Source: an uncultured Bacteroidota bacterium
GTDB lineage: Bacteria > Bacteroidota > Ignavibacteria > Kryptoniales > JAKASW01
Direction: 5' to 3'
Assembly (NCBI GenBank): GCA_964603995.1
Contig: CAZRXH010000001.1
Location: 1,975-65,974, forward strand
Length of the DNA: 64,000 nt
Made by a program: the position numbers and the translations under genes. Positions 8,891 to 53,416 of the stretch are shown one piece after another. The notes under the pieces were generated by a model that worked only from the letters and a program-made list of their open reading frames with translations, was not told the origin of the DNA and did no database searches. Numbering within the stretch: the first letter of the stretch is position 1; each line of letters starts with the position of its first letter.

Positions 8891-9148
8891 TCAATAATGG
8901 AACTTGCACGAAATTATAATTATCTCCTGATCGGCGACTTTATAAACAAGGCGATTCTTATCATCGATCCTCCGCGACCAAAGCCCCTGCAACTCGTGCT
9001 TCAACGGCTCAGGCTTACCTGCCCCCGAAAACGGATCCCGCTGGACATCCTTGATCAGCCTTATTATCCGTGTGTAGATCTTCTTGTTCCCCGTCGACCA
9101 CCCTGTAAAATCCTCAAACGTACCCGGAACAAACGCGATCCTTCTCAC
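8891..9148 (-). CDS. yoeB: YoeB/Txe family toxin
   Basis: 85 aa. The segments FTGWSTGNKKIYTRIIRLIKDVQRDPFSGAGKPEPLKHELQGLWSRRIDDKNRLVY...ISCKFHY match the YoeB pattern. Confidence 0.85.
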   Translation of the reverse strand: MRRIAFVPGTFEDFTGWSTGNKKIYTRIIRLIKDVQRDPFSGAGKPEPLKHELQGLWSRRIDDKNRLVYKVADQEIIIISCKFHY

Positions 9149-26766: not shown

Positions 26767-27357
26767 TCATGCTCTAATCCACTTCCTTTCGAGGCAATCT
26801 CTCAACTGAAGCTTTGCCCGATGAATTATGACCCAATAGTTGGACGTGGAAATCATCAAGGCCTTACATATCTCTTCGAATTCCAGCTCATCGAGGTATT
26901 TCATCATGAAAACGGCCCTGCATTGGGTGGTCAAGCGCGTGAAGCACTGCTGAAGGACGCTGGAAAACTCCTTCGAACGGAGTTGATCTAAATGACCTAC
27001 TCCCCAATCGGTGGGAAGCTCCTCGGGTCTCCATCTGCCGTTTTCTTCAAAATATGGATCTTCATCCCCAAGACCGACAACAGACGCGGACGGGACGGTT
27101 CGTTCTGCAGACTTCTTACGATAGTGATCGATGATCTTGTTCTTCAGAATCGAGAACAACCAGGTCTTCTCCGTGCTCTCTCCCCTGAACGTATCCAGTC
27201 TTTCGAGGGCAGAAAGGAAAGTCTCCTGAACAAGATCTTTAGCAACCTCTCTCTCACCGACTCTGACTACTGTGTAACTGTAGAGAATATCGGAATAGCT
27301 GGTGACCCAATCGGAAGGATTTGCCTTTTCAGTACCGGATGTGTAACCGACGGCCAT
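26767..27357 (-). CDS. ECF sigma-70 family factor (full length)
   Basis: Region 2 (DLVQETFLSALERLDTFRGESTEKTWLFSILKNKIIDHYRKK) and region 4 (CRAVFMMKYLDELEFEEICKALMISTSNYWVIIHRAKLQLR). Confidence 0.85.
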   Translation of the reverse strand: MAVGYTSGTEKANPSDWVTSYSDILYSYTVVRVGEREVAKDLVQETFLSALERLDTFRGESTEKTWLFSILKNKIIDHYRKKSAERTVPSASVVGLGDEDPYFEENGRWRPEELPTDWGVGHLDQLRSKEFSSVLQQCFTRLTTQCRAVFMMKYLDELEFEEICKALMISTSNYWVIIHRAKLQLRDCLERKWIRA

Positions 27358-33726: not shown

Positions 33727-35247
33727 CTACTTGCCAACCGTTTCGACACCAAGCTGATCCTTCGCAGCCCGGATAAACTTGAGTACCCTCGCATTCGTCG
33801 GATCCATCTCAAGGGTCATAGAGAGAGTATCGAGAGCTTCACGAAATTTGAGCAGCTTGAACTGGACCAGCCCGAATAGTTCCAGGCCCTGGGGGGCGCG
33901 GTAGCCAAGATCAACAGCGGCTTTGAAAGCCGACTCGCATCCTTCCAGATCGCCTGTCTTCATCCTGCAATTGGCAAGGCTCGACAGCGACACCGCATCA
34001 TGATCGGTGATCTTGTCGAGCAACCTTGATGCTTCCGCAAAGCGACCTGTGTCTATCAGCGCCGATGAAAAGAGCCTGAGAAACCAGTCTTCATTTTCAA
34101 AGTCCCTGAACTCTTCTGCGACTTCGATCGCCTCCTTATGCATCTTCTGCCTCAGCAGGAATTCAAAATAGGCTGCGACTCTCGGCGCGGTACGCTTCAG
34201 TCTCGCGGCCTTTCCCAGGTACAGGTCTGCCGCCTCAACTTCCCTGGCCAGCGCTGCGGCCCTTCCAATCTTCGTGTACAACACATCGATATCGAAGATC
34301 GGTTCGATCGCCGCGTCGGTTTTCCCTTTTGAGATTCCTGACTCGTATTGCCTGAGCGCGTCCTGGTATGCCCTCAAAGACTCATTATACCTGCCGAGTT
34401 TTATGTATATCTCGCCTCTCAGCATATGGGCGAAAGCCTGTTGTGGCGCCGCTGCGAGAGACATTTCGCAGGCTGCCAGCGCCGCATCTTCGTTTCCTTT
34501 CTTGAACTCGTTTTCCGCGATTATACCGTAGATTGAGGCCTCGACGGATTTTCCGAACCCGCCTGCGGCAAGAGCCTCGCGGAGGTGAGCGAGACCTTCT
34601 TCGATGTCTCCGAGTACCATTTCTGTCTGTCCCAGTTGATACAGGGCATAGCCATAGTTCTGACGCTTTTCAACCTGGGCGAGGAGAAGCCGATGGTTTC
34701 GTCTCGCCTTTTCGCGAATCACATCTTCATCCTGTGCATAGCCAAGGTGATCCACAATCACGTCCGAGTGAATTACTCTCGCGTGGACTTCATTGAGTGA
34801 AGTAGTGATCTGTTCGTGAACTTTTCCCGTGAAGCGGACACCTTTGAGCTTTCTGAAAAGACGCGGATACGCCACCAGATGATACTGCGAATCGTCTTTA
34901 GTCCCGATCTTGCTCTTTAGATTTAGAAGGAACGCGTCAGCCTTTCCGCTCGAAATCATTTTCCGGATCTTCTCGTGGTACGAGATCGCAATTCTCTCGT
35001 CGGCATCAAGATAGAGGATCCAGTCACCCGTCGCATTTCTGAGAGATTCGTTTCTAGCTGCGGAGAAGTCTTCACACCATTGAAAATCAAAAATATGCGC
35101 CCCAAAGCTTTCGGCAATTTCCTTCGTATTGTCCGTCGAACCGGTATCAACAATAACGATCTCATCGACAAGATCCTTAACGCTTTCGAGGCAGCCGGGA
35201 AGGAATCGTGCTTCGTTCTTCACTATCATCGAAAGAGACAACTTCAT
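33727..35247 (-). CDS. family 2 glycosyltransferase fused to TPR repeats
   Basis: N-terminus SMIVKNEARFLPGCLESV...VIVDTGSTDNT...YLDADE (GT2), followed by ~300 aa of TPR-like repeats. Confidence 0.8.
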   Translation of the reverse strand: MKLSLSMIVKNEARFLPGCLESVKDLVDEIVIVDTGSTDNTKEIAESFGAHIFDFQWCEDFSAARNESLRNATGDWILYLDADERIAISYHEKIRKMISSGKADAFLLNLKSKIGTKDDSQYHLVAYPRLFRKLKGVRFTGKVHEQITTSLNEVHARVIHSDVIVDHLGYAQDEDVIREKARRNHRLLLAQVEKRQNYGYALYQLGQTEMVLGDIEEGLAHLREALAAGGFGKSVEASIYGIIAENEFKKGNEDAALAACEMSLAAAPQQAFAHMLRGEIYIKLGRYNESLRAYQDALRQYESGISKGKTDAAIEPIFDIDVLYTKIGRAAALAREVEAADLYLGKAARLKRTAPRVAAYFEFLLRQKMHKEAIEVAEEFRDFENEDWFLRLFSSALIDTGRFAEASRLLDKITDHDAVSLSSLANCRMKTGDLEGCESAFKAAVDLGYRAPQGLELFGLVQFKLLKFREALDTLSMTLEMDPTNARVLKFIRAAKDQLGVETVGK

Positions 35248-35627
35248 TTGCCCGGCTCCACCGCCTTCGAATTGATCACATCCATCACTTTCTGCCGGAA
35301 AGAGATTTGCTCGATCGGTTTGAATATGAATTCGTTCGCACCATACTCTTCGGCTTTCTTGACATTCTCCGAATCGCCATACGCGGTCATTATGATCACG
35401 GGAGTTTCCTTGTTGATCGTCCCCGCACGGACTCTCCTAAGCACTTCCAGACCATCTATTCGCGGCATCATTATGTCGAGCAGTATCAGATCGAACTTCG
35501 AACTGGCCGCGAGTGTGAGCGCTTCCACCCCATCAACAGCATTGGAAATGTCAAACCCGATTCTCTTCAGGTGAAACTCGACGAGTTTCCTGATCATCGG
35601 TACATCATCAGCAACGAGCGCTTTCAT
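35244..35627 (-). CDS. single-domain response regulator (CheY-like receiver)
   Basis: 127 aa receiver with DLILLDIMMP (phospho-Asp context) and a KP motif. Confidence 0.85.
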   Translation of the reverse strand: MKALVADDVPMIRKLVEFHLKRIGFDISNAVDGVEALTLAASSKFDLILLDIMMPRIDGLEVLRRVRAGTINKETPVIIMTAYGDSENVKKAEEYGANEFIFKPIEQISFRQKVMDVINSKAVEPGK

Positions 35628-36358
35628 TTGTTAAGTCTATTCTTCAGTTGGTCCAAGATTCTTTTTGCCTCCCACCAATCTACCGGGGAGGTGTGAACGG
35701 TCTTGTTAAGCCGGGTTGCCAGCGTAGTTGCCTCGTCGTAGCCGAAGGTTCCTCCGGTCCCGCCAATATTGTGCGTTATCTTGCGTATCGTCTCCACATC
35801 CTCATTTCGAACGGCGTCATCGAGTTGCCCGACCTGCTCTTCAAAATACTTTACGAACTCTTCGACCATGCCGCGGACGAAATCTCTGTATTCGTCCTCG
35901 TTGACCCCGAAGGGATTCTCCTTCTCATTCCGATCCAGATCCATTTCCGGATCCCTGGTAATAATCGACTTGACGAATTCATCACCGAAGGTCTGTTTGA
36001 GCTTTTGAAGCAGCACTTCTTCAGTGAGGGGTTTGGTAATGACCGAAGTAGCACCGAGTTTGGTCGCTGACACAACGTTTATTCTGTCCGAATACGCTGT
36101 CATAACAACTACCGGTATGCTCTTCGTCAACTCGTTCGACTTAAGCACTTGAAGCGTTTTGAACCCGTCCAGACGCGGCATCATAAGATCGAGAAAGATC
36201 AAATCGGGTCTCGAGGAGAGTGCTATTTGGAGCCCTTCGTAGCCATCAGAAGCCACGAACACGTTGAGTTTCAGCCTCCTGAAACAATCCTCGGCAAACC
36301 GTTGCACGACTTTCGTATCCTCGATGATCAGGACGGACTTCTTCTGATCCTCAGCCAT
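35624..36358 (-). CDS. response regulator receiver fused to HPt-like domain
   Basis: Receiver ([14 protein letters not shown]) followed by a helical C-terminus with [21 protein letters not shown], an HPt-like His context. Confidence 0.7.
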
Positions 36359-36632
36359 TCTTCTTTCCGCTGCCTTCGGAGTCCGGCGGGTCCTTCGTTG
36401 ACTTCTTTGGGAGAATGTTCTTCAGCACCTTGGCTTTTTCCCTGTCCACCTGCGCCGACGCCCTCTTGTTCTCCGACGCTATCTTCTCGTATACTTCTTC
36501 CCTGTGTACCGGGATCTCGTCAGGTGCTTCAATGCCCAGCTTGACGCTGTTGCCATCGACTGACACCACGACTACTTTGATCTTGTCGCCGATCTTTATT
36601 ACTTCGCCCAACTTCCTTGTCAAGACTAACAT
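36351..36632 (-). CDS. csrA: carbon storage regulator CsrA (C-terminally extended)
   Basis: [48 protein letters not shown]. 93 aa. Confidence 0.9.
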
Positions 36633-36647
36633 AGTTGCCTTCCATGG

Positions 36648-37046
36648 TCAGTTAATTCTGTATGCAGTTGAATATTTGTCCGAATTGAGAACAACTTGCT
36701 TGCCTATTTTTCGTGCGTCGTTAAGAACAATAGGAGCCTTCAGGTTCGCCGTAATCGGTTCCGGGTCGCGGCGAAGGACTATGACGACAAAAGCCGCGGA
36801 CGATCTGTCATCGGCCGGAAGCTCCCTGTAAATCTCCGGGGCGACTATAGACGCCTCCAGTAGTGCCAGGCCGACATTCGGGTCTTCCACGGACAATAGC
36901 CATCTTAGCGGCTCAGTGTCCTTGTCATCAATAATAATGAAGTTGTGAAGTTCTTCAAAACCCGGCAGACCATTCGGAAAATGATAAACAATGTTTTCAT
37001 CAAATTCCAATTCACCGAACTGCCTCGTCACGAGTTTCGCTTTCAC
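36648..37046 (-). CDS. fliW: flagellar assembly factor FliW
   Basis: FGELEFDENIVYHFPNGLPGFEELHNFIII...PLRWLLSVEDP pattern. I chose the GTG start at 37046, preceded by GAGGAG. The ORF extension to 37166 would overlap motB. Confidence 0.85.
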   Translation of the reverse strand: MKAKLVTRQFGELEFDENIVYHFPNGLPGFEELHNFIIIDDKDTEPLRWLLSVEDPNVGLALLEASIVAPEIYRELPADDRSSAAFVVIVLRRDPEPITANLKAPIVLNDARKIGKQVVLNSDKYSTAYRIN

Positions 37047-37083
37047 CTCTATATTCTCCTCAGTATTTTTCCGCGAAGCGGGA

Positions 37084-37785
37084 TCATTTTGGCGTGATGC
37101 CGTTGAGTATGACAATGTCCACTCTCCTGTTTTCTGCTTTGTGCGCCGGAGTATCATTCGGAACAAGAGGGTGATATTCTCCGTATCCGACGATCGCCAC
37201 TTTCTCCGGCCTGATAGGGTAATGCTGCAACAAGTAGTAACCTACATTCAACGCCCGGGCAACGGACAGGTGCCAGTTGGACGGGAATCTCGCATTGTGA
37301 ATAGGGGTGTTGTCAGTATGTCCCTCAATGCGAATGTTGTTGGGTATCGACGCCAGGAGGAAACCGAGCGTGTCAAGGACAGATAGAGCCGCCGGCTTAA
37401 TTCTGTCGTCTCCAGGGTCGAACATAAACTTCTCCAGGAAGTGAATCGTAACGCCGCGCTCGTCTATGGTGACCATAGCTCCGCCCTTCTTGAGAACCTC
37501 TCCAATAGCGGACTTGACCTTTCGCTCCATAGCCTCGGAAGCTTTCATCGGAGGTACCGCCTCAGGCGACTGCATGATTCCCTCGCTGCCTGGCATCGGG
37601 CCCTGCGCCTGGCCGCCGCCGAACACGTTCTCAAAAGCCGATACAAAGGCATGATATTTCTTCATGTCGACCTGTGAGCTGGCGTACAATATCACAAACA
37701 ATCCGAGGAGCAGAGTAATCAGATCCGAATAGGTCAGCAACCATCTTTCAAGATTGTCGTGTTCTCCGCTGTGTTTCTTCCGCAT
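37084..37785 (-). CDS. motB: flagellar motor stator protein MotB
   Basis: N-terminal TM with conserved Asp (WLLTYSDLITLL) and a C-terminal OmpA-like domain. Confidence 0.85.
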   Translation of the reverse strand: MRKKHSGEHDNLERWLLTYSDLITLLLGLFVILYASSQVDMKKYHAFVSAFENVFGGGQAQGPMPGSEGIMQSPEAVPPMKASEAMERKVKSAIGEVLKKGGAMVTIDERGVTIHFLEKFMFDPGDDRIKPAALSVLDTLGFLLASIPNNIRIEGHTDNTPIHNARFPSNWHLSVARALNVGYYLLQHYPIRPEKVAIVGYGEYHPLVPNDTPAHKAENRRVDIVILNGITPK

Positions 37786-45523: not shown

Positions 45524-46273
45524 TCATACCTGCCCCACCTGGTTTGCATCGCCGAGTGAGGTGTCCTGACTCCTGATGGCTTTCTGTCCCGCTTCGAAAT
45601 CCTGCTGGAGCTGAATCATCGCAACCATCTCGTCGATGGGGTTTACGTTGGATCCTTCCAGATAGCCCTGGCGGACACTAACGGCAGAAGGGCTTGCATC
45701 CTGCAGAGCGGCGCCATCGTTCAAAGAGTATAAATTCGCGCCCGCCTTTGAGATGTCGCTGTAACTCGCCGGCACCGCGATCTTGAGCTGGCCATAGACT
45801 TCATTTCCCGCCTTGACGACACCACTGCGATCTACGACAAGCTGGCTTGCCTGAGTTTGCTGTATGTTGCTGATCCTGATAGGGCCGCCAACTCCCATGA
45901 CGGTTGCGCCGTCCCGTGTCTGAAGCGTTCCGTCGGTTGACAATGTGAACGAACCGTCTCGGGTCAGCCGGATTCCGTTCTGAGTCTGAACCTCGAAGAA
46001 TCCCTGACCGTCCAGTGCAAGGTCCAGCGGGTTGTTTGTCTGCTGCAAAGTCCCCTGTGAAAAATCGGTGTAAGTCTGGTCTTTCACGTCTTTCTGGGTC
46101 GGGTCGACGGTTCCGTCGCGGAGCAGAGTGCTCGCGGAGATCAGCTCGTTTGTGAACGCGTCATCCCTCTTGAAGGCGGTGGTATCAACGTTCGCCAGGT
46201 TGTTCGCGATAACCTCCAGCCGTTTCTGAAGAGGAATCAGCCCGAGGGCGCTCGTGTAGATCCCTTTGATCAT
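45524..46273 (-). CDS. flgF: flagellar proximal rod protein FlgF (FlgG paralogue)
   Basis: MIKGIYTSALGL...IANNLANVDTTAFKRD and C-terminus GYLEGSNVNPIDEMVAMI. Confidence 0.8.
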   Translation of the reverse strand: MIKGIYTSALGLIPLQKRLEVIANNLANVDTTAFKRDDAFTNELISASTLLRDGTVDPTQKDVKDQTYTDFSQGTLQQTNNPLDLALDGQGFFEVQTQNGIRLTRDGSFTLSTDGTLQTRDGATVMGVGGPIRISNIQQTQASQLVVDRSGVVKAGNEVYGQLKIAVPASYSDISKAGANLYSLNDGAALQDASPSAVSVRQGYLEGSNVNPIDEMVAMIQLQQDFEAGQKAIRSQDTSLGDANQVGQV

Positions 46274-46941
46274 CGCCGCCCTCCTCCGTTTTGTTGAGCC
46301 GCCCTCGAGTTCGCTATCTTGCTCCTTTTCAGTGCGAGGATCAGTTCTAGCTCTCCCTTGCCCATGTTCAGCTGCCGTGCGAGAATATTGAGATCTGATT
46401 GTTCACTAACGAGAGCGAATGCTTCTTTGAATTTCGTGCCCGACTGTTTCGCTGCCTGAGAAGCATAGGAGATCGCGAAATTCAGCCGCTCGGATTCCAT
46501 CCCGTGTGTCCTCGCCATCTCATGAATTGCAGCGCCGGAATCCAGGTTCCCGTCATAGTCGACGTAGTACTTGCCAGCCGGCCTTTCTGCGGTCTTAATT
46601 TTCTCCCTGGCGATCTCGTTCAGTATCCTTTCGATTTCCCGCTTGGAAATAGTTTGCGGATGCTTCACGCTCATGCGCTGTGCGGAGTTGACCTTCTCCT
46701 TCTGCTCTTTCATCAGGCGCCTGGCACGTATTACCAGAACTATGAGCAGACCGGTCATCGCCAGAATCATGGCAAGCTCCAGGATGAGAACGAAATCCGA
46801 GACTCCGAAAATGCGTTCCGCGAAGCTCTGGGTGGCGTTCGATCCGGTGTTCAGTGCGGCGCGGTCCATATCCCGCGATACCAGCGCTCTAATATTGACT
46901 GCGGTTGTGTCGGAGAACAAAATCATCAACATGCCGAACAT
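46270..46941 (-). CDS. hypothetical single-TM protein inside the flagellar operon
   Basis: 223 aa with one TM (FVLILELAMILAMTGLLIVLVI). I recognise no family. Both ends overlap the neighbouring genes. Confidence 0.6.
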   Translation of the reverse strand: MFGMLMILFSDTTAVNIRALVSRDMDRAALNTGSNATQSFAERIFGVSDFVLILELAMILAMTGLLIVLVIRARRLMKEQKEKVNSAQRMSVKHPQTISKREIERILNEIAREKIKTAERPAGKYYVDYDGNLDSGAAIHEMARTHGMESERLNFAISYASQAAKQSGTKFKEAFALVSEQSDLNILARQLNMGKGELELILALKRSKIANSRAAQQNGGGRR

Positions 46942-48371
46942 CAGTTTATCCCTCCATTGGTTGGAGCGGCGTTTCCTTTTACCGGAAGTGTAATCGTGAA
47001 CGTCGTGCCCCTTCCTTCAACGCTGTCCACCTTCATTTCGCCGCCGAATTTTCTCACAATACCTCTAGTTATCGGGAGCCCAAGCCCGGTTCCCTTTCCC
47101 ACTTCCTTCGTCGTAAAAAACGGCTCGAAGATCTTTGATAGGTTTTCCTTCTTTATGCCTGTGCCGGAATCGGAGAACCTGATATTGATCTTTTCATCAA
47201 CACATTCTGTCAGAATGACCATCTCCCCACCGTCCGGCATGGCGTCCTTCGCATTTATCAGCAGGTTCAGGAAAGCCTGCTGCAAATAGTTCTTGTTGGA
47301 CTCGAGCGGCGGGACATCGTCGGAAAACCGCAGATCGAACTCTATGCCACGGTTCTTGAACTGATAATCCACAAGCGAAATGATCTCGGTCAGCGCCCAG
47401 TTCACATTTACCAGCTCATGCTCCAGCTCCTCCGGAACGCTCCGCGAGAACGAAACAAGTTGTCGGGTGATCTGCGCGATCCGCTGGACCTGGTTCCGGA
47501 CAATCTCGATGCGGTGCTCAATGTCCTTCCCCTGCTGGAGAAGAGCGATGTGACCGAGAAGAATCTGCAGCGGATTATTGATCTCGTGCGCGATACCACC
47601 GGCAAGTTCCCCGAGGGAAGCGAGCTTCGCAGCCTGCAGCATCTGCGCCTGTGATTTCTTGAGCTCTTCTGCAGCATTCATCAGCCTGTCGATGTTGTGA
47701 AGATTCTCAATGGCTACCGCAGCCTGGTTCGCCAGAATTCCAAGAAGCATAAGTTCGTGATCGGAGAGCGTCCTGTGAACTTTCTCTGTGTGGATGATAT
47801 AGACTCCTATCGCCTCATTGCGCAGGACAAGAGGAACCACCACGAAACTCCTGGCACCTGCTTCTCCGACTGAAGTGTTTAGATCCGGAACAACCGTGGT
47901 CTTCTTCTGCTCTATTACCCAGTCCAGAATACCTTCTTCCAGTAGATGTTGGGACGCAGTCAGCATGTGGTCCGAACAGGCTGGAAGGAACGGCTTTGCA
48001 TTCGGCCTGGACTTCTCGACTTCAAATATCATGCTTTCTTCGACCGGAATGACCTGACGCGTAAGCTCGAGGAGCGAATCAAAAACCAACACAGGATCTG
48101 TAGCTGTACTTATCGTGTTCCCCAGCCGTTGCATGGCGACTAACTGATCGACTGTTTGCTTTATGTTGGTTTCGGTTTTTTCATGGAAATCTATCTTTGT
48201 CTTGAGCATCTGGATGGTGGTTTCAAGCGCACGAATGTAGCTTTCGCGCGTCTCCATAAAGCGCTCTATCACGGCGGCAGCATTTTGCATGTCCAACTGG
48301 CCGCTGTCGTTCTGTACTTCCCGTCCTATCATCTCGTCCCTCTTCATCTTCCCCTCCGATAAGCGAATCAT
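46941..48371 (-). CDS. soluble sensor histidine kinase with GAF domain
   Basis: H-box (IAHEINNPLQ), N box (NLLINAKDAM), G boxes (DSGTGI, GTGLGLPI), and an upstream GAF-like region. Confidence 0.85.
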   Translation of the reverse strand: MIRLSEGKMKRDEMIGREVQNDSGQLDMQNAAAVIERFMETRESYIRALETTIQMLKTKIDFHEKTETNIKQTVDQLVAMQRLGNTISTATDPVLVFDSLLELTRQVIPVEESMIFEVEKSRPNAKPFLPACSDHMLTASQHLLEEGILDWVIEQKKTTVVPDLNTSVGEAGARSFVVVPLVLRNEAIGVYIIHTEKVHRTLSDHELMLLGILANQAAVAIENLHNIDRLMNAAEELKKSQAQMLQAAKLASLGELAGGIAHEINNPLQILLGHIALLQQGKDIEHRIEIVRNQVQRIAQITRQLVSFSRSVPEELEHELVNVNWALTEIISLVDYQFKNRGIEFDLRFSDDVPPLESNKNYLQQAFLNLLINAKDAMPDGGEMVILTECVDEKINIRFSDSGTGIKKENLSKIFEPFFTTKEVGKGTGLGLPITRGIVRKFGGEMKVDSVEGRGTTFTITLPVKGNAAPTNGGIN

Positions 48372-49228
48372 ATGATGTTTATGAAAGTTCGTTCGAGGTC
48401 TTCATGGAGTTTCGTGCCAAATGTATCATAGAAGGCCTGAGTTATCTCCGCCTCGGAGATGTTCAGAATCCTAAGCGCTTCCGGGTCGAAGCTATCGATC
48501 TTCTCATAAGAATGTGCCCCCAACCCGAGCTTGTGGCAAAGGTAGTCGACAAAATGAATCAGTGCTGTCAGCTGCGGATTTCTCTCAGCGAGTCCCGGTC
48601 GGTGATGGAATTTTATCGACTCGATAAGCTGATCCGGAAGATTCCACCGTTCGGCGAGCCATGCACCTATGTCGCCATGAGTTGCGAATAGAACTGCCTG
48701 TTCCATGTCCTGGAAAGTCGATTTCCCATCTGTCACGGCCCTCACAATTTGCGCGTAGTCTTCGTGAAAGTACTGGTGTGTCACCAAGATCCCTATGTCG
48801 TGTATGAGTCCGGCGACAAAAGACTCCCCGCTGATCCTGTAGCCAAGCTGCCTCGCCAGAGTACGTGCGGCGATCCCGGTCGCAAGCGAATGTTCCCAGA
48901 ACTCCTTCGAATTGAAGTACTTGTCCTTCTTCTTCTTGAACGCGCTTATCAGAGAGATGCTGATGAGTATCTCCTTCAGCGAGTCGAAACCCAACACCAT
49001 GATCGCAAAGTCCAGCGTAGAGATTTTTCTCTGGAATCCGTAAAACGGGGAATTCGCTATCTTGAGCACCTTGGCCGTCAGAACCTGGTCGGCGGAGATG
49101 ACCTGGGTCAGTTTCGAAATGCTCGTGTTTGGATTATCGATCAGCGAGGCTACTTCGACGGCTATCGTCGGAAGCGCCGGGAGCTGAATTATGTTTTGGA
49201 CTTTTTCTTTTAAAATCGCATTTTCCAT
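48368..49228 (-). CDS. HDOD domain protein
   Basis: LPALPTIAVEV...DQVLTAKVLKIANSPFYG...HDIG pattern. Confidence 0.85.
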   Translation of the reverse strand: MENAILKEKVQNIIQLPALPTIAVEVASLIDNPNTSISKLTQVISADQVLTAKVLKIANSPFYGFQRKISTLDFAIMVLGFDSLKEILISISLISAFKKKKDKYFNSKEFWEHSLATGIAARTLARQLGYRISGESFVAGLIHDIGILVTHQYFHEDYAQIVRAVTDGKSTFQDMEQAVLFATHGDIGAWLAERWNLPDQLIESIKFHHRPGLAERNPQLTALIHFVDYLCHKLGLGAHSYEKIDSFDPEALRILNISEAEITQAFYDTFGTKLHEDLERTFINII

Positions 49229-50373
49229 TGGTCCAACCTATTGGTTAAGATTGCGCGTTCTGCCATCTGCTGAAGCACAGAGACTGCGTTCTTGTAATAC
49301 TCCGCCACCTTCGCTTCATCGTAGCCGAGAACGGTTGCCACCTGTCTTAACTCCAATCCCTCATAAAGCTTCAGGGTGATCACAAGCCTTTCAGTCGCTG
49401 GAAGCAGCTTGATGGCGTCTTTGAAAAACCTCTTGAGTGTTCCGTCATCTATTTCGTCTTCCGTCTCTCCGGAAGGTTCGTTGCTGGGCACCTCAGGTCC
49501 GGCCCCCGGAACGAAATCGGTGGTGGGTACCTTCACCTTCACCAGCGTGGATGAGCCGTCTATGTACTTCGCTGCGAGCGCCTTTGGAGAAATGCCCAGC
49601 TTTTCGATCCCGATCAGCTGAACCGCCGCAACGTCAAACTTGATGGGCTGGTCGGCACATGAATAACCGGTCGACGAAGCGATCCTGCTTGCAACATGGA
49701 CTATCGCAGTGAGCTCCGGGTTGATCTCCGCATAGGCCGGAGTATGATGGAGCCGGATCGCCTCAACGAGGTATCCCGGAAAACTCCACTTCGACGCAAG
49801 CCACGCTCCGACCTCGCTGTGCGTTGTGCCGGCGACCAATACTTCTGCCTGAGACAGCTGCACGCCGTCTTCGCTTACCAATCGCTGTATCTCTTCAAAG
49901 TCCTCCCGGAAGTACTTGTAAAATACCAGTGTGCCGATATCGTGCAGAAGGCCTGCCGCGTATGCTTCACCTGGAATCCGGTACTTCACATCTCTCGCGA
50001 GCGAGCGTCCTGCCGAAGCAGTATCAATCGCGTGCTTCCAGAACTTCCTTGGATCAAAGTTCTTCACGCCGCTCCCCCTGAAGAGATCGATGAGAGTGAG
50101 AGACAGAACGGTCTCACGAAGGGTTTCGAACCCCATCGCCACGATTGCCCACTCGACGGTCGAGATCTTTCTTGCGAAGCCATAGTATGGGGAGTTCGCC
50201 GCTCTGAGTATTTTGGTCGCCAGAGGCGGATCTTTCGAAATTATTCTTGCCAATTCCGCCGCACTGCTTTCGGAATCGCTCGCGAGGCGCATCACTTCAA
50301 GCGCGGTCGTCGGAAATGTCGGCAAGTCTCTTATAGATGTCAATTTTTCAGTCAATTGTCCGACCCCTATCAT
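49210..50373 (-). CDS. HDOD domain fused to C-terminal sigma-70 region 4-like HTH
   Basis: The N-terminus (LPTFPTTALEV...DPPLATKILRAANSPYYG...HDIG) is an HDOD domain. The C-terminus (LLPATERLVITLKLYEGLELRQVATVLGYDEAKVAEYYKNAVSVLQQ) is a region 4-like HTH. 4-bp overlap with fliA. Confidence 0.8.
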   Translation of the reverse strand: MIGVGQLTEKLTSIRDLPTFPTTALEVMRLASDSESSAAELARIISKDPPLATKILRAANSPYYGFARKISTVEWAIVAMGFETLRETVLSLTLIDLFRGSGVKNFDPRKFWKHAIDTASAGRSLARDVKYRIPGEAYAAGLLHDIGTLVFYKYFREDFEEIQRLVSEDGVQLSQAEVLVAGTTHSEVGAWLASKWSFPGYLVEAIRLHHTPAYAEINPELTAIVHVASRIASSTGYSCADQPIKFDVAAVQLIGIEKLGISPKALAAKYIDGSSTLVKVKVPTTDFVPGAGPEVPSNEPSGETEDEIDDGTLKRFFKDAIKLLPATERLVITLKLYEGLELRQVATVLGYDEAKVAEYYKNAVSVLQQMAERAILTNRLDQWKMRF

Positions 50374-51098
50374 GATTCAACAGCCTTTCTCAGCTGCTCT
50401 TTCAGTTTTGAAATCACTTCCGAATGTATCTGGGAGACTCTGGATTCACTGATCCCAAGAGTTTTCCCTATTTCTTTGAAAGTGAGCTCTTCATAGTAGT
50501 AGAGCGTAATAACCATTCTCTCCCTTTCAGGAAGCGATTTGAGGATTTTGACAAGCTGTTCTTTGAGCTCCTCGTCTTCGAATTGTTCAATTACCTCGCT
50601 GTCGCTCCCGATTACATCCTCGAGAGTCATGTCCTCGCCGATTGTCTTAGTCAAAGACACCGCTTCGGCGTTCGCGAGATATCCTTTGATCTGTTCAAAT
50701 TCACCTATGCTCATGTTGATGGCGCGGGTGTATTTTTCGCCGTTGATGCTGTCCATGTTGAGTTCGCTCAGGGACTTGGAGGCTTTCTTATATTTGTCCC
50801 GCACCGATCTCGGAAGCCAGTCCACCTTCCTTATCTCGTCAAGCATGACACCTCGGATCCTCTGAGACGCGAACGTTTCAAATTTCACGCCCCGGTAGGG
50901 GTCGAACCTTTCTATGGCTTCGACCAGCCCGATTATTCCTATGCTTATCAGGTCATCGTTGTTGAAGATGCACTTGGACGGGAGGTTAATCGCACGCGCC
51001 GCGAACTTGACGAGATTCAAATAGGAAAGCACAAGCTCTTTCTTCAGCGTCGTGGTCTTATGCTTGGAGTATTTCTTCCAGAGCTCTTGAGTAGTCAT
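50370..51098 (-). CDS. fliA: flagellar sigma factor sigma-28
   Basis: Regions 2, 3 and 4 of the FliA/SigD type (RFDPYRGVKFETFASQRIRGVMLDEIRK...LPERERMVITLYYYEELTFKEIGKTLGISESRVSQIH), downstream of flhF-flhG. Confidence 0.9.
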   Translation of the reverse strand: MTTQELWKKYSKHKTTTLKKELVLSYLNLVKFAARAINLPSKCIFNNDDLISIGIIGLVEAIERFDPYRGVKFETFASQRIRGVMLDEIRKVDWLPRSVRDKYKKASKSLSELNMDSINGEKYTRAINMSIGEFEQIKGYLANAEAVSLTKTIGEDMTLEDVIGSDSEVIEQFEDEELKEQLVKILKSLPERERMVITLYYYEELTFKEIGKTLGISESRVSQIHSEVISKLKEQLRKAVES

Positions 51099-51364
51099 GC
51101 CTGCATCCCGACTTTCTTCTCCTGCAGCGGCGCGTTCTGCACGCGCTCATCGGCAGCGGAGACTTTCATTGTTTCTGATCTGTTCTTCTGGAGAGTTAGG
51201 AAAAACATAAACAACATCGTAAGGACAAGGATAATGATGGCCACACCGAACGCGAGCATGAAGGACCTTACTATCGCGTCCACGACGTCAAACCCATTTG
51301 AAGCGAAATAGACAACTCCCAGAAAGAATATCAACATGGGTATTTTTATTCCTAGCTTGTCCAT
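51095..51364 (-). CDS. small two-TM hypothetical protein between flhG and fliA
   Basis: 89 aa with two hydrophobic helices. Overlapping start/stop codons with both neighbours. Confidence 0.55.
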   Translation of the reverse strand: MDKLGIKIPMLIFFLGVVYFASNGFDVVDAIVRSFMLAFGVAIIILVLTMLFMFFLTLQKNRSETMKVSAADERVQNAPLQEKKVGMQA

Positions 51365-52188
51365 TACTTTTTCTTTCCAAAAGATCCTTTAGATAGAATT
51401 CTGTCTGCGATAGTCTTCATCGCCTGTGACGATGGCGAATCCGGAAACTCCTGCATGAGCGGTGACTGGACACTTACCGCCTTTTCGACCGAAGAATCCG
51501 AAGGGATGAAACCCGCATAATCTATCTTCATACTGAGAAAATGCTCGCTCACCAGGTCGAACTTTGTCTTGACTTCTTCAGCCTGCGCCGCGTCCTGTGC
51601 TCTGTTGATGAGAAGCTTCAAGTCAGCGCTGGAATCTATTCTCTTGATCGCCTTCACAAGTACATAAGCGTCCATGACCGCCGTCGGCTCGGGTGTCGAC
51701 ACAACCAGCACCTCGTCGGAGAGAAGCGCAAGGGAAATGGATTCCTGAACGATTCCGGCCGCCGTATCGATGACGATATAATGGAACGCCGGTTCGGCAA
51801 GCCTTACTTCACGGAAGAATGTTGCTGCGTCTCCGGAACTCAGCCTCTTCAGCTTTCCGTCTGAGGAGCCTGCGAGCAGGAAGGCATTCCGTGATATCTC
51901 GGCGACTGCATCCCCGAGCCTCACGGAGCCATCGATGACGTCGAACAACCTGTGCGAAGGCGACACACCTGAAAGAATATCAAGGTTGGAAAGATTTACG
52001 TTGCCGTCTACGATAAGGACCCGGGCACCGTCGCGTGCCAGTGCTAATCCGAGATTCAGGGCTATGTTGCTCTTTCCGACGCCGCCCTTTCCGCTGATCA
52101 CCGTTATCTTGTGCGGTTGTGCTCCCAATGGAACGACCGTAGTTTGTGCGTTCACTACTTCTCTCAATCTCACTGCTTGATCAAACAT
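51364..52188 (-). CDS. flhG: MinD/ParA-type flagellar number regulator FlhG
   Basis: Deviant Walker A (SGKGGVGKS), downstream of flhF. Confidence 0.85.
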   Translation of the reverse strand: MFDQAVRLREVVNAQTTVVPLGAQPHKITVISGKGGVGKSNIALNLGLALARDGARVLIVDGNVNLSNLDILSGVSPSHRLFDVIDGSVRLGDAVAEISRNAFLLAGSSDGKLKRLSSGDAATFFREVRLAEPAFHYIVIDTAAGIVQESISLALLSDEVLVVSTPEPTAVMDAYVLVKAIKRIDSSADLKLLINRAQDAAQAEEVKTKFDLVSEHFLSMKIDYAGFIPSDSSVEKAVSVQSPLMQEFPDSPSSQAMKTIADRILSKGSFGKKK

Positions 52189-53416
52189 TCGCCTCGGCTC
52201 CGACTTTGTAAATCATTCTCGAGAGTTTGTCTCCAGATGCCGGTTCTATATCATCCGGCACGCTCTGTCCGTCGGTCACGAAAGAAAACGGAAGCCTCGA
52301 ATCGTGCGCAAGGCTGAGGAGCATCCCGAGCGAAACCGCCTCGTCGATTTTTGTAACGATCAGCCTGTTGGGTTTCAGGCTCTTGAATTTCTTGTATATG
52401 TCACGGACGGTACTGAGCGAGAAGTTTGCGCTCAAAACCAGGTGGACCTCATTAGGATCCGCAGCGTCGATGAACCTGCCGAGCTCCATGATCTTGTCCG
52501 CACTTCGCTGGCTCCTGCCAACCGTGTCGATGTAGATGGTGTCATAAGTTGAATACTTTTTGATCGCAGCTATCATCTCGTCAGGCGTGTACACCACGGA
52601 TAACGGGATCGAGGCTATGTCGGCAAATGCCTTCAACTGGTCTATCGCGCCGATCCTGTATGTGTCCGCAGTGATCAGGGCAACATTCTCTCCTTTCAGG
52701 AGCTTCCCTATCGAGGCTAGCTTTGCCACTGTCGTGGTTTTGCCGACACCGGTAGGCCCTACCAGTGCGATTACATATCCCTTTCTTCCGAGCTTGCGGA
52801 CCGGAGCATCAGGAAGCCGATGCGCTATGGAGTTCAATATGAAGCTATCGACCGCAAGCTGGTTCTCAATTTCGTCTCCATCGAGTTTGTTGTTACATGC
52901 CTGGACTATCTCGAGCGCGAGGTCTTCTTCAACTTCATTTTCAACGAGGGATGTGTACACATTCTTGAGAGTTTCAGAAAGTACGGGCATCTTGAAGTGT
53001 TTGATGTGCTGGGCAATCTCACCCAGTGCGCTTTTCACTTCCGAAATCTCCTGTTTGAGCGCTTCGTTTTCAGCGCTGGAGACCGCCTTTGCGATCGAAA
53101 CCGTGGTGTCTTTCGGACCTCCCTCAGCTCTGCGCTTCTCTTCGAACTTCGAGGCCATCTGACGAAGGCTCCCCAGCATATCCTCGTTTGCCGCGGTGCC
53201 CGGTAGCTGCGGACTGACGACCTTCAGCTTCTGGGCGTTAATCGGCGCTTCATCGTAAGCCGCGGTAACCTCGATATATTCTACGCCGCCTGGCCGAAGG
53301 ACGCCGCCTTTTGAAATACGACGCGTATTTAGAATCACGGCGTCATCGCCAAATTCCTGCCGCATTTTTTCCGCAGCCTCTTTCGCGGTGGCTCCTACGA
53401 ACTTTTTTATTCTCAT
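52181..53416 (-). CDS. flhF: flagellar biosynthesis GTPase FlhF
   Basis: SRP-type GTPase motifs GPTGVGKTTT, DTVGR and TKIDE. Confidence 0.9.
   Translation of the reverse strand: MRIKKFVGATAKEAAEKMRQEFGDDAVILNTRRISKGGVLRPGGVEYIEVTAAYDEAPINAQKLKVVSPQLPGTAANEDMLGSLRQMASKFEEKRRAEGGPKDTTVSIAKAVSSAENEALKQEISEVKSALGEIAQHIKHFKMPVLSETLKNVYTSLVENEVEEDLALEIVQACNNKLDGDEIENQLAVDSFILNSIAHRLPDAPVRKLGRKGYVIALVGPTGVGKTTTVAKLASIGKLLKGENVALITADTYRIGAIDQLKAFADIASIPLSVVYTPDEMIAAIKKYSTYDTIYIDTVGRSQRSADKIMELGRFIDAADPNEVHLVLSANFSLSTVRDIYKKFKSLKPNRLIVTKIDEAVSLGMLLSLAHDSRLPFSFVTDGQSVPDDIEPASGDKLSRMIYKVGAEANV

Follow-up and report, generated by a model that had tools for sequence, protein, structure and literature searches.

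A paralogue of sigma-28 region 4 fused to a duplicated HDOD domain directly downstream of fliA in a flagellar gene array of Kryptoniota and relatives

Gene order around fliA in the flagellar array

We analysed a stretch of 64,000 nucleotides (hereafter, the window) from an uncultured Bacteroidota bacterium of the Kryptoniales (GenBank assembly GCA_964603995.1, contig CAZRXH010000001.1, positions 1,975 to 65,974). In this window, the gene located immediately after fliA, which encodes sigma-28, the sigma factor for flagellar genes, codes for a duplicated HDOD domain connected by a floppy linker to a paralogue of region 4 of FliA, here called the sigma-4 copy. According to the list of open reading frames (ORFs) and the Pfam matches, the minus strand of the window constitutes one long flagellar gene array. 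The order of the genes is flhB, flhA, flhF, flhG, an ORF of 89 amino acids (aa), fliA, and ORFs of 387, 286, 476, and 223 aa, after which the array continues with flgF, flgG, flgA, flgH, flgI, flgJ, flgN, flgK, and flgL, and ends with motA, motB, fliW, csrA, and 2 receiver proteins. The coordinates of the genes and domains discussed here are given in Table 1.

The 387-aa gene starts within the end of fliA: its start codon and the fliA stop codon lie together in the sequence ATGA, an overlap of 4 base pairs (bp). The junctions on the 3' side of the fusion gene also overlap, by 19 bp (HDOD2), 4 bp (kinase), 1 bp (membrane protein), and 4 bp (flgF), and the genes therefore look translationally coupled. 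From the gene overlap, the fusion protein may be expressed stoichiometrically with sigma-28. A preliminary description of this DNA had reported the same coordinates and the same 4-bp overlap, followed by a second HDOD protein with overlapping codons, a kinase, a membrane protein, and flgF, and both the ORFs and the Pfam matches bear this succession out. The FliA protein itself has intact regions 2 and 4, including the recognition helix SESRVSQIH, and ends with ...GAATCATGA.

The HDOD domain of the fusion matched PF08668 over residues 17 to 212 with 204.8 bits and the stand-alone protein HDOD2 matched it with 220.2 bits, both far above the Pfam cut-off of 22.9 bits. The 2 HDOD proteins are paralogues with a sequence identity of 41%. 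In a model of the whole fusion protein inferred with AlphaFold2 (AF2), a helical HDOD body (residues 1 to 272) is separated from 4 helices (residues 310 to 376) by a linker (residues 273 to 309) with predicted local distance difference test (pLDDT) values below 50.

Table 1. Features of the fliA-HDOD-kinase module and of other genes in the window
Feature	Position	Strand	Evidence or remark
flhF	52181-53416	-	ORF; orthologues with SRP54 Pfam family; upstream context of module
flhG	51364-52188	-	ORF; orthologues with ParA-type Pfam family; upstream context of module
Small ORF, 89 aa, probably two-pass membrane protein	51095-51364	-	Between flhG and fliA; topology read from sequence
fliA (sigma-28), 242 aa	50370-51098	-	TIGR02479 FliA_WhiG, 220.6 bits (cut-off 189.6); Pfam Sigma70_r2 and Sigma70_r4
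HDOD and sigma-28 region-4-like fusion, 387 aa (P0001)	49210-50373	-	Start codon overlaps fliA stop by 4 bp
HDOD domain of fusion, aa 1-272	49558-50373	-	PF08668, E = 1.2e-60; AF2 helices, residues 5-272
Linker of fusion, aa 273-309, variable, predicted disordered	49447-49557	-	pLDDT < 50
Sigma-28-type region-4-like domain, aa 310-387	49213-49446	-	Four helices and clade-specific C-terminal tail AERAILTNRLDQWKMRF
HDOD2, stand-alone HDOD protein, 286 aa	48368-49228	-	PF08668, E = 2.3e-65
GAF-HisKA-HATPase histidine kinase, 476 aa	46941-48371	-	Pfam GAF, HisKA, HATPase_c
Single-pass membrane protein, 223 aa	46270-46941	-	C-terminal GxGE..L..L motif; DUF2802, 15.3 bits, below cut-off
flgF	45524-46273	-	ORF; orthologues with Flg_bb_rod Pfam families; structural flagellar genes resume here
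ORF, 61 aa	45342-45527	-	Fills flgF-flgG spacer, overlapping ends of both genes; no Pfam family
fliW	36648-37166	-	After motB, overlapping motB end
csrA	36351-36632	-	After motB
REC-Hpt protein	35624-36358	-	Downstream of csrA
REC protein (single-domain receiver)	35244-35627	-	Downstream of csrA
Glycosyltransferase-TPR protein	33727-35247	-	At end of array
ECF-type sigma factor	26767-27357	-	Outside array; Sigma70_r2 and r4_2
YoeB-family toxin gene	8891-9148	-	Outside array

Identity and conservation of the C-terminal domain

When searched alone, the C-terminus of the window protein scored below the gathering cut-offs of both PF04545 and PF08281, with 22.2 bits for Sigma70_r4_2 (E = 1e-4; cut-off 25.7) and 17.9 bits for Sigma70_r4 (cut-off 24.1). 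The more distant fusion proteins P0124, P0136, and P0245, which were recovered by a C-terminal profile search of 1.84 billion representative proteins, scored 35 to 39 bits for region 4 and exceed the cut-offs that Pfam sets for HDOD and for Sigma70_r4. The domain scan proposed in the preliminary description thus identified the HDOD domain (PF08668) in the window protein itself, whereas the Sigma70_r4 cut-off was passed by these distant relatives. In NCBIfam, the best match of the C-terminus was FliA_WhiG (TIGR02479; E = 1e-7), at 31.9 bits against the 189.6 bits set for full-length members, and restricted to model positions 154 to 222 of 224, without region 2 or region 3. A comparison with the neighbouring FliA protein showed 31% identity over 74 aa (BLASTP, E = 2e-10).

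A profile built from 17 homologous C-termini was searched against all sequences in the Protein Data Bank (PDB), and the 7 best matches were exclusively to region 4 of sigma-28-family proteins, with E-values from 7e-14 to 1e-7. These included WhiG (6pfj and 6pfv, E = 7e-14; 7lq4, E = 1e-11) and the FliA proteins of E. coli (6pmi, E = 1e-12), P. aeruginosa (9wsf, E = 9e-11), and Aquifex (1rp3, E = 1e-7), while the next best sigma family, SigF, was matched with E = 4.5e-4. A generic sigma-70 or ECF origin was rejected, as no family other than sigma-28 came within 10^3-fold of the weakest match to a sigma-28 protein. The last 80 residues modelled alone with AF2 gave a pLDDT of 87, and a Foldseek search of the PDB with this model retrieved sigma region 4 structures only, with TM-scores of 0.64 to 0.76 and, for most of the top hits, root-mean-square deviations of 0.8 to 1.8 Å. 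Both the fold and the profile homology to solved region 4 domains place the C-terminus of the fusion among sigma-28 (FliA/WhiG)-type region 4 domains, as a paralogue of FliA's own region 4. The preliminary description had called the domain a sigma-70 region 4 and had named a lack of support in profile searches as grounds for abandoning this assignment. The profile and fold searches uphold region 4; the generic sigma-70 label is replaced by the more specific sigma-28 type. It was also noted that one source had automatically annotated an orthologue as 'RNA polymerase sigma factor (sigma-70 family)'.

About 41 full-length orthologues of the fusion, with 61% to 100% identity, were found in public data, in addition to the more distant fusions. 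When 19 of the orthologues were compared with the window protein, the fraction of identical positions was 0.82 in the C-terminal 78 residues, 0.75 in the HDOD part, and 0.30 in the linker. These comparisons indicate that the sigma-4 copy is under selection, because it is the best-conserved part of the protein, persists in 3 different architectures, and is always located beside fliA. It could alternatively be a decaying, functionless remnant of a partial duplication of fliA, in line with a recognition helix that is diverging fast (see below). This we strongly disfavour as very improbable, since the domain is confidently folded in the AF2 model, is more conserved than the rest of the protein across the orthologues of 61% to 100% identity, and has been kept in at least 35 species.

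The proteins of the window clade also have an extra, highly conserved C-terminal tail (aa 369 to 387; 49213-49270, minus strand), QMAERAILTNRLDQWKMRF, in which W383 and K384 are near-invariant. This tail, which is predicted to be helical, occurs neither in FliA nor in the distant fusions.

To relate the conserved and variable positions to function, we made use of the structural and mutational data on sigma-28 of P. aeruginosa, in which S224 and Q228 make base-specific contacts to the -35 element, and in which the substitutions S224A and Q228A impair transcription and flagellation (PMC12784957). The interface of region 4 with the anti-sigma factor FlgM comprises L187, I191, L200, A203, L204, Y206, E209, and L210, and the substitution L204R weakens FlgM binding about 190-fold (PMC12784957). 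Residues were mapped with a HMMER alignment to 9wsf, for which the chain index equals the number in the paper plus 5, as checked on 4 residues. Columns were then compared between 85 FliA/WhiG region 4 sequences (effective number 39) and 38 copies (effective number 18.6).

The residues that recognize the -35 element have not been conserved in the copies. The position of S224 was occupied by serine in 93% of the FliA/WhiG sequences (3.9 bits), but by serine, alanine, and tryptophan in 24%, 17%, and 16% of the copies (1.3 bits), and by A354 in the window protein. The arginine of the SRVSQ motif, which is invariant in FliA/WhiG (100%, 4.3 bits), was replaced by aspartate (32%) or threonine (22%) and retained in only 20% of the copies, with K355 in the window protein. 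Likewise, the position of Q228 was glutamine in all FliA/WhiG sequences (100%, 4.3 bits), whereas glutamate (29%), alanine (16%), and arginine (10%) were the most common residues in the copies, with E358 in the window protein. Overall, the information content of the -35 recognition residues was 1.3 to 1.8 bits in the copies as compared to 3.9 to 4.3 bits in FliA/WhiG, and the recognition-helix positions were the least constrained of all (1.1 to 1.8 bits versus 3.1 to 4.3 bits in FliA). Furthermore, the basic positions conserved in FliA in columns 20, 36, and 61, which we take to be contacts to the DNA backbone, were relaxed in the copies, and the mean net charge of the helix-turn-helix was -1.47 in the copies versus +2.30 in FliA.

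The hydrophobic interface and core positions, on the other hand, were as conserved as in FliA. The residues corresponding to L187, I191, L200, A203, L204, and L210 are F317, I321, L330, T333, L334, and L340 in the window protein, of which L334 is invariant. The retention of the fold and the groove together with the loss of the -35 contacts indicates a folded and selected region 4 that has given up promoter reading of the sigma-28 type. The suggestion in the preliminary description that the fusion might act as a promoter competitor is therefore disfavoured, given the loss of S224, Q228, and the invariant arginine and the on average net acidic helix-turn-helix.

The same data bear on whether the sigma-4 copy could have become a one-component HDOD-HTH regulator of the flagellar genes, with a helix-turn-helix (HTH) of new DNA-binding specificity. 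Region 4 is a DNA-binding fold, and within the window clade the recognition helix is well conserved, the domain has a net charge of +2, and K355 is retained. Across the family, however, the recognition helix is the part under the least constraint, the contacts that read the -35 element in P. aeruginosa are lost (PMC12784957), and both the basic positions and the positive charge of the helix-turn-helix have been relaxed. Taken together, we regard such a regulator as quite unlikely.

Distribution of the module and neighbouring genes

To study how widespread the arrangement is, we examined 80 loci, selected as one genome per species and annotated with phmmer and a custom hidden Markov model of the sigma-4 domain. 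All 80 loci displayed a common order, as far as the contigs extend: flhF, flhG, in most cases a small ORF, fliA, one or more HDOD genes, the GAF kinase, in some cases the membrane protein, flgF, and flgG. The kinase was in place in nearly all of the related loci whose sequence reaches this point. The loci were from genomes assigned to Candidatus Kryptoniota, Kryptonia, Kryptonium, Chrysopegis, Thermokryptus, Ignavibacteria, Ignavibacteriales, Ignavibacterium album, Melioribacteraceae, Calditrichia, and KSB1, and also included some metagenome-assembled genomes (MAGs) with generic or evidently loose labels.

The gene architecture could be classified in 79 of the loci. The majority, 44 loci in total, contained one to three plain HDOD genes after fliA and no second sigma-4 domain, whereas 28 loci encoded a full HDOD and sigma-4 fusion of 342 to 398 aa, 4 a half-HDOD and sigma-4 protein of 229 to 231 aa, and 3 a free sigma-4 protein of 89 to 134 aa. 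A second sigma-4 gene was thus present in 35 of the 79 species loci, and in all 35 it started between -65 and +68 nucleotides from the fliA stop codon and was followed by an HDOD gene of about 290 aa and the kinase. The metagenomic loci L003 and L008 showed the arrangement of the window. The search for the same fusion beside fliA in other genomes that the preliminary description had called for was thus successful, and the fusion was not seen apart from fliA or the flagellar genes, an occurrence that would have spoken against a functional connection.

By this distribution, the 286-aa HDOD protein and the GAF kinase are the ancestral, conserved core of the module, to which the sigma-4 copy is an add-on. 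The single HDOD proteins of lineages without a copy scored 210 to 344 bits against HDOD2 of the window and 180 to 251 bits against the fused HDOD, and we therefore consider HDOD2 to be the core orthologue and the fused HDOD a fast-evolving duplicate. The arrangement around the fusion given in the preliminary description stands, with the correction that HDOD2 and the kinase form a clade-wide core and that the sigma-4 copy is accessory and also occurs as a free protein of about 90 aa.

The free sigma-4-like ORFs of 89 to 134 aa were located between fliA and the HDOD gene in 3 Ignavibacteria-type MAGs (L050:5719-6000, L055:5572-5976, and L062:1204-1473; for example MKALQKQEHVNPIMLMPKKVWREYIGPKTSLFDQIENLPDDEKLVLALHYYEGLSFTEIGRLMDMNEWDAVVFHAQALKKLQNKLEELL) and represent the minimal form of the element. 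Two or three plain HDOD genes in tandem, without a sigma-4 copy, were observed in L063, L067, L069, L071, L073-L083, L085, and L087. The FliA proteins of these loci, labelled Melioribacteraceae, Ignavibacteriales, and Ignavibacteriaceae, were shorter, at 205 to 212 aa. Apparent fusions indicated by tblastn matches to query residues 1 to 368 in L036, L038, L040, L041, L043, L045, L051, and L057 were dismissed as artefacts, because the C-terminal part of the match fell on the neighbouring FliA and the loci contain a single HDOD gene.

In a neighbour-joining tree inferred from 59 columns of the region 4 segments, 34 of the 38 copies clustered in one clade apart from all FliA proteins. The 4 half-HDOD forms made up a separate group closer to their own FliA (49% to 57% identity), which suggests a second duplication. 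A single origin of all sigma-4 copies is at best tentative, with so few columns and possible long-branch effects.

That fliA, HDOD, and kinase are linked in every one of the 80 loci, also in the 44 that have no second sigma-4 domain, suggests that the function of the HDOD protein is tied to FliA. The core HDOD proteins might accordingly bind region 4 of FliA, with the fused copy as a pseudo-substrate that auto-inhibits its own HDOD domain, or the copy might bind regions 2 and 3 of FliA in trans and hold sigma-28 in a compact, inactive state. Two observations favour such a role: the sigma-4 copy is tethered to a duplicated and fast-evolving HDOD domain, and in the sigma-28/FlgM complex region 4 is packed onto regions 2 and 3 (PMC12784957). 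We nevertheless find these possibilities improbable, as no contact between an HDOD protein and a sigma factor is known and the free forms of about 90 aa imply that the sigma-4 copy needs no tether.

The other proteins encoded near the fusion were also examined. The kinase contains HisKA (37.4 bits), HATPase_c (87.9 bits), and GAF (44.8 bits) domains and no hydrophobic segment upon visual inspection of its sequence, in agreement with the soluble histidine kinase without an adjacent cognate regulator that the preliminary description had recognized. No receiver gene is adjacent to it; the receivers are encoded about 10 kb downstream, past csrA, and are candidate partners of this orphan kinase. 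It was also observed that the flagellar array ends with these 2 receivers (35244-36358, minus strand) and a glycosyltransferase-TPR protein.

The 223-aa protein had previously been called an unknown membrane protein. It is indeed a membrane protein, and a member of a family that jackhmmer traced to 44 ORFs in the corresponding place of related loci. Among the 21 members that were scanned, 10 showed similarity to DUF6115 (best E = 6e-7) and 6 to DUF2802 (best E = 7e-5), suggesting that the 223-aa protein is a distant member of the DUF6115/DUF2802 (FipA-like) family. DUF2802 is the domain of FipA, which binds FlhF in gamma-proteobacteria (PMC11620751). The 223-aa protein resembles FipA in its N-terminal membrane anchor, in the conserved G..E..L motif of its cytoplasmic domain, and in its location in the neighbourhood of flhF, flhG, and fliA (PMC11620751), although the window member remains below the Pfam cut-off for DUF2802 (15.3 versus 33.5 bits).

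The 89-aa ORF overlaps both of its neighbours and matches no Pfam family, and phmmer identified homologues of 64 to 110 aa that occupy the same site in most of the related loci. For the 61-aa ORF between flgF and flgG, phmmer found matches with E = 1.7e-23 to 2e-5 in 13 loci from the same clade; the ORF may encode a genuine small protein of the flagellum, or the conservation may reflect a regulatory region. The presence of fliW and csrA after motB indicates that flagellin is controlled post-transcriptionally by FliW-CsrA in this lineage. The ECF-type sigma factor and the YoeB-family toxin gene outside the array are unrelated to the module.

Possible role at the flagellar sigma factor and comparison with known systems

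We searched for the anti-sigma factor FlgM (PF04316) and found no match among 92 small ORFs of the window at E ≤ 0.05 or, with E ≤ 1 as the limit, among 10 additional ones, nor was it present in the Pfam gene tables of the relatives L002 and L004 (fliL to flgL, within ±10 kb). In the window, flgJ abuts flgN directly, and the statement in the preliminary description that no flgM-like gene is located beside flgN and flgK is supported by the scan. The absence applies to the window and the close neighbourhoods and is unproven for the whole genome, because FlgM is short and poorly conserved and the search was confined to these regions. No paper was found that mentions FlgM together with Ignavibacteria or Ignavibacterium. 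The sigma-28 promoter consensus sequences TAAA-N14-16-CCGATA and TAAA-N14-16-GCCGAT had 0 matches each in the window, which suggests that the targets of sigma-28 are located elsewhere or have a different consensus. There was also no flagellin gene other than flgL in the window.

The anatomy of the module is solid, and the mechanism that we derive from it is put forward as a hypothesis. Our tentative preference, held with somewhat less than even confidence, is that the sigma-4 copy is a protein mimic or decoy of sigma-28 region 4. It would no longer read the -35 element and would keep the hydrophobic groove by which an anti-sigma factor holds region 4 of sigma-28, and so would compete with FliA for a regulator that binds region 4. 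This regulator could be an anti-sigma factor of the FlgM type whose gene lies elsewhere, or it could be the core HDOD protein encoded alongside, and the competition would set the threshold for the release of sigma-28. The HDOD domain of the fusion would gate or localize the decoy; it may form a pair with HDOD2, and its input may be a nucleotide signal or the GAF kinase. Such a logic would correspond to sigma-factor mimicry of the PhyR type transferred to the flagellar sigma factor. Among the functional ideas in the preliminary description, a decoy fits best, with the hydrophobic residues that contact FlgM being kept.

Several points weigh against a decoy. The main weakness concerns the binding partner of the sigma-4 copy: flgM, the most obvious target, was not found in the window or in the neighbouring loci, and an interaction between HDOD and any sigma factor has never been reported in the literature. 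Two polar contacts to FlgM are changed, with L336 in place of Y206 and G339 in place of E209. Furthermore, the retained hydrophobic residues also form the core of the domain and do not single out an anti-sigma partner, and they are presumably part of the surface that docks on the beta-flap of RNA polymerase. The sigma-4 domain of the window protein as a whole has a net charge of +2 and K355 at the position of the arginine, which is compatible with weak DNA binding. Finally, the monomer model from AF2 is uninformative about contacts between the domains.

Docking on the tip of the beta-flap would by itself provide another explanation, in which the domain competes for core RNA polymerase or tethers an HDOD sensor to it. 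The helices of region 4.1 and early region 4.2 (LPxxERLVxxLxYYEGL) are conserved as strongly as in FliA. FlgM and the beta-flap are expected to occupy overlapping surfaces of region 4, and if they do, the retained groove fits an RNA polymerase binder equally well. A region 4 on its own, lacking regions 2 and 3, should however bind core weakly, and for a protein that competes with sigma factors in general, so strict a linkage to fliA and the flagellar genes would be surprising, which makes this explanation an unlikely one.

In a wider sense, the region 4 mimics, free or fused to HDOD, could together with the fliA-linked HDOD protein and the GAF kinase constitute an unrecognised partner-switching circuit that controls sigma-28 in Kryptoniota, Ignavibacteria, and related lineages, although we consider this rather doubtful. 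If true, the circuit would provide the first molecular role for HDOD, in the regulation of sigma or anti-sigma factors. The domain is very common in bacterial signalling, and its mutants show defects in motility in several species. In the loci studied here, HDOD has a genetic tie to the flagellar sigma factor in at least 4 candidate phyla or classes and is in many species physically fused to a defunct copy of the domain of sigma-28 that mediates regulation and promoter binding. This offers a testable hypothesis for what HDOD proteins contact, namely region 4 of sigma-28 or its inhibitor, and the free sigma-4 proteins of about 90 aa provide a minimal reagent for testing mimicry.

To our knowledge, sigma-factor mimicry has so far been known only from PhyR, in the stress response of Alphaproteobacteria. 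The proposed circuit would, if true, be the first case outside the PhyR/ECF system, and a decoy, likewise if true, would extend mimicry to the control of flagellar genes. While the concept is known, the sigma-28 target, HDOD as the partner domain, and the free mini-proteins would be new. Full-text literature searches identified no description of an HDOD-sigma fusion or of a link between HDOD and a sigma or anti-sigma role, in line with the preliminary description, which knew of no such system.

The best structural sequence match of the sigma-4 copy was to WhiG (6pfj/6pfv, E = 7e-14; 7lq4, E = 1e-11) of the WhiG-RsiG-c-di-GMP system of Streptomyces and Rubrobacter, and the titles of these PDB entries refer to RsiG-WhiG-c-di-GMP complexes. 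There, an anti-sigma factor loaded with cyclic di-GMP (c-di-GMP) sequesters a member of the sigma-28 family. The anti-sigma factor, RsiG, is helical and unrelated to HDOD. Unlike in that system, no RsiG-like gene was seen here, and a link to c-di-GMP would be by analogy.

HDOD is related to the c-di-GMP phosphodiesterase domain HD-GYP, and the HDOD protein SadB binds c-di-GMP (PMC6543031). The HDOD proteins SadB, GsmR, PSPTO_4229, and Cj0248, which are stand-alone or linked to a receiver, have genetic effects on flagellar motility or gene expression by an unknown mechanism (PMC6543031, PMC11813219, PMC11004494); unlike for the protein described here, there is no report that any of them has a fused sigma domain or belongs to a fliA operon.

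The module resembles the FliA/FlgM checkpoint in that a paralogue of FliA region 4 is encoded beside fliA and has kept the hydrophobic residues that contact FlgM (PMC12784957). It differs in that the sigma-4 copy has neither regions 2 and 3 nor the residues for reading the -35 element, and so is not a sigma factor, and in that no flgM gene was found nearby.

In the PhyR-NepR-sigma(EcfG) system of Alphaproteobacteria, the sigma-like domain of PhyR is an anti-anti-sigma decoy that titrates NepR (PMC4551977). PhyR contains ECF-type sigma-2-like and sigma-4-like parts, a receiver domain, and has NepR as a known partner, whereas the sigma-4 copy consists of a sigma-28-type region 4 only, combined with HDOD or with no partner domain, and the fusion has no Response_reg domain according to Pfam. 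The similarity of the fusion to PhyR in NCBIfam was weak (E = 0.0025). What the 2 systems have in common is a sigma-derived domain that is not itself a sigma factor, fused to a signalling domain and, in the reading proposed here, acting as a decoy for an inhibitor (PMC4551977).

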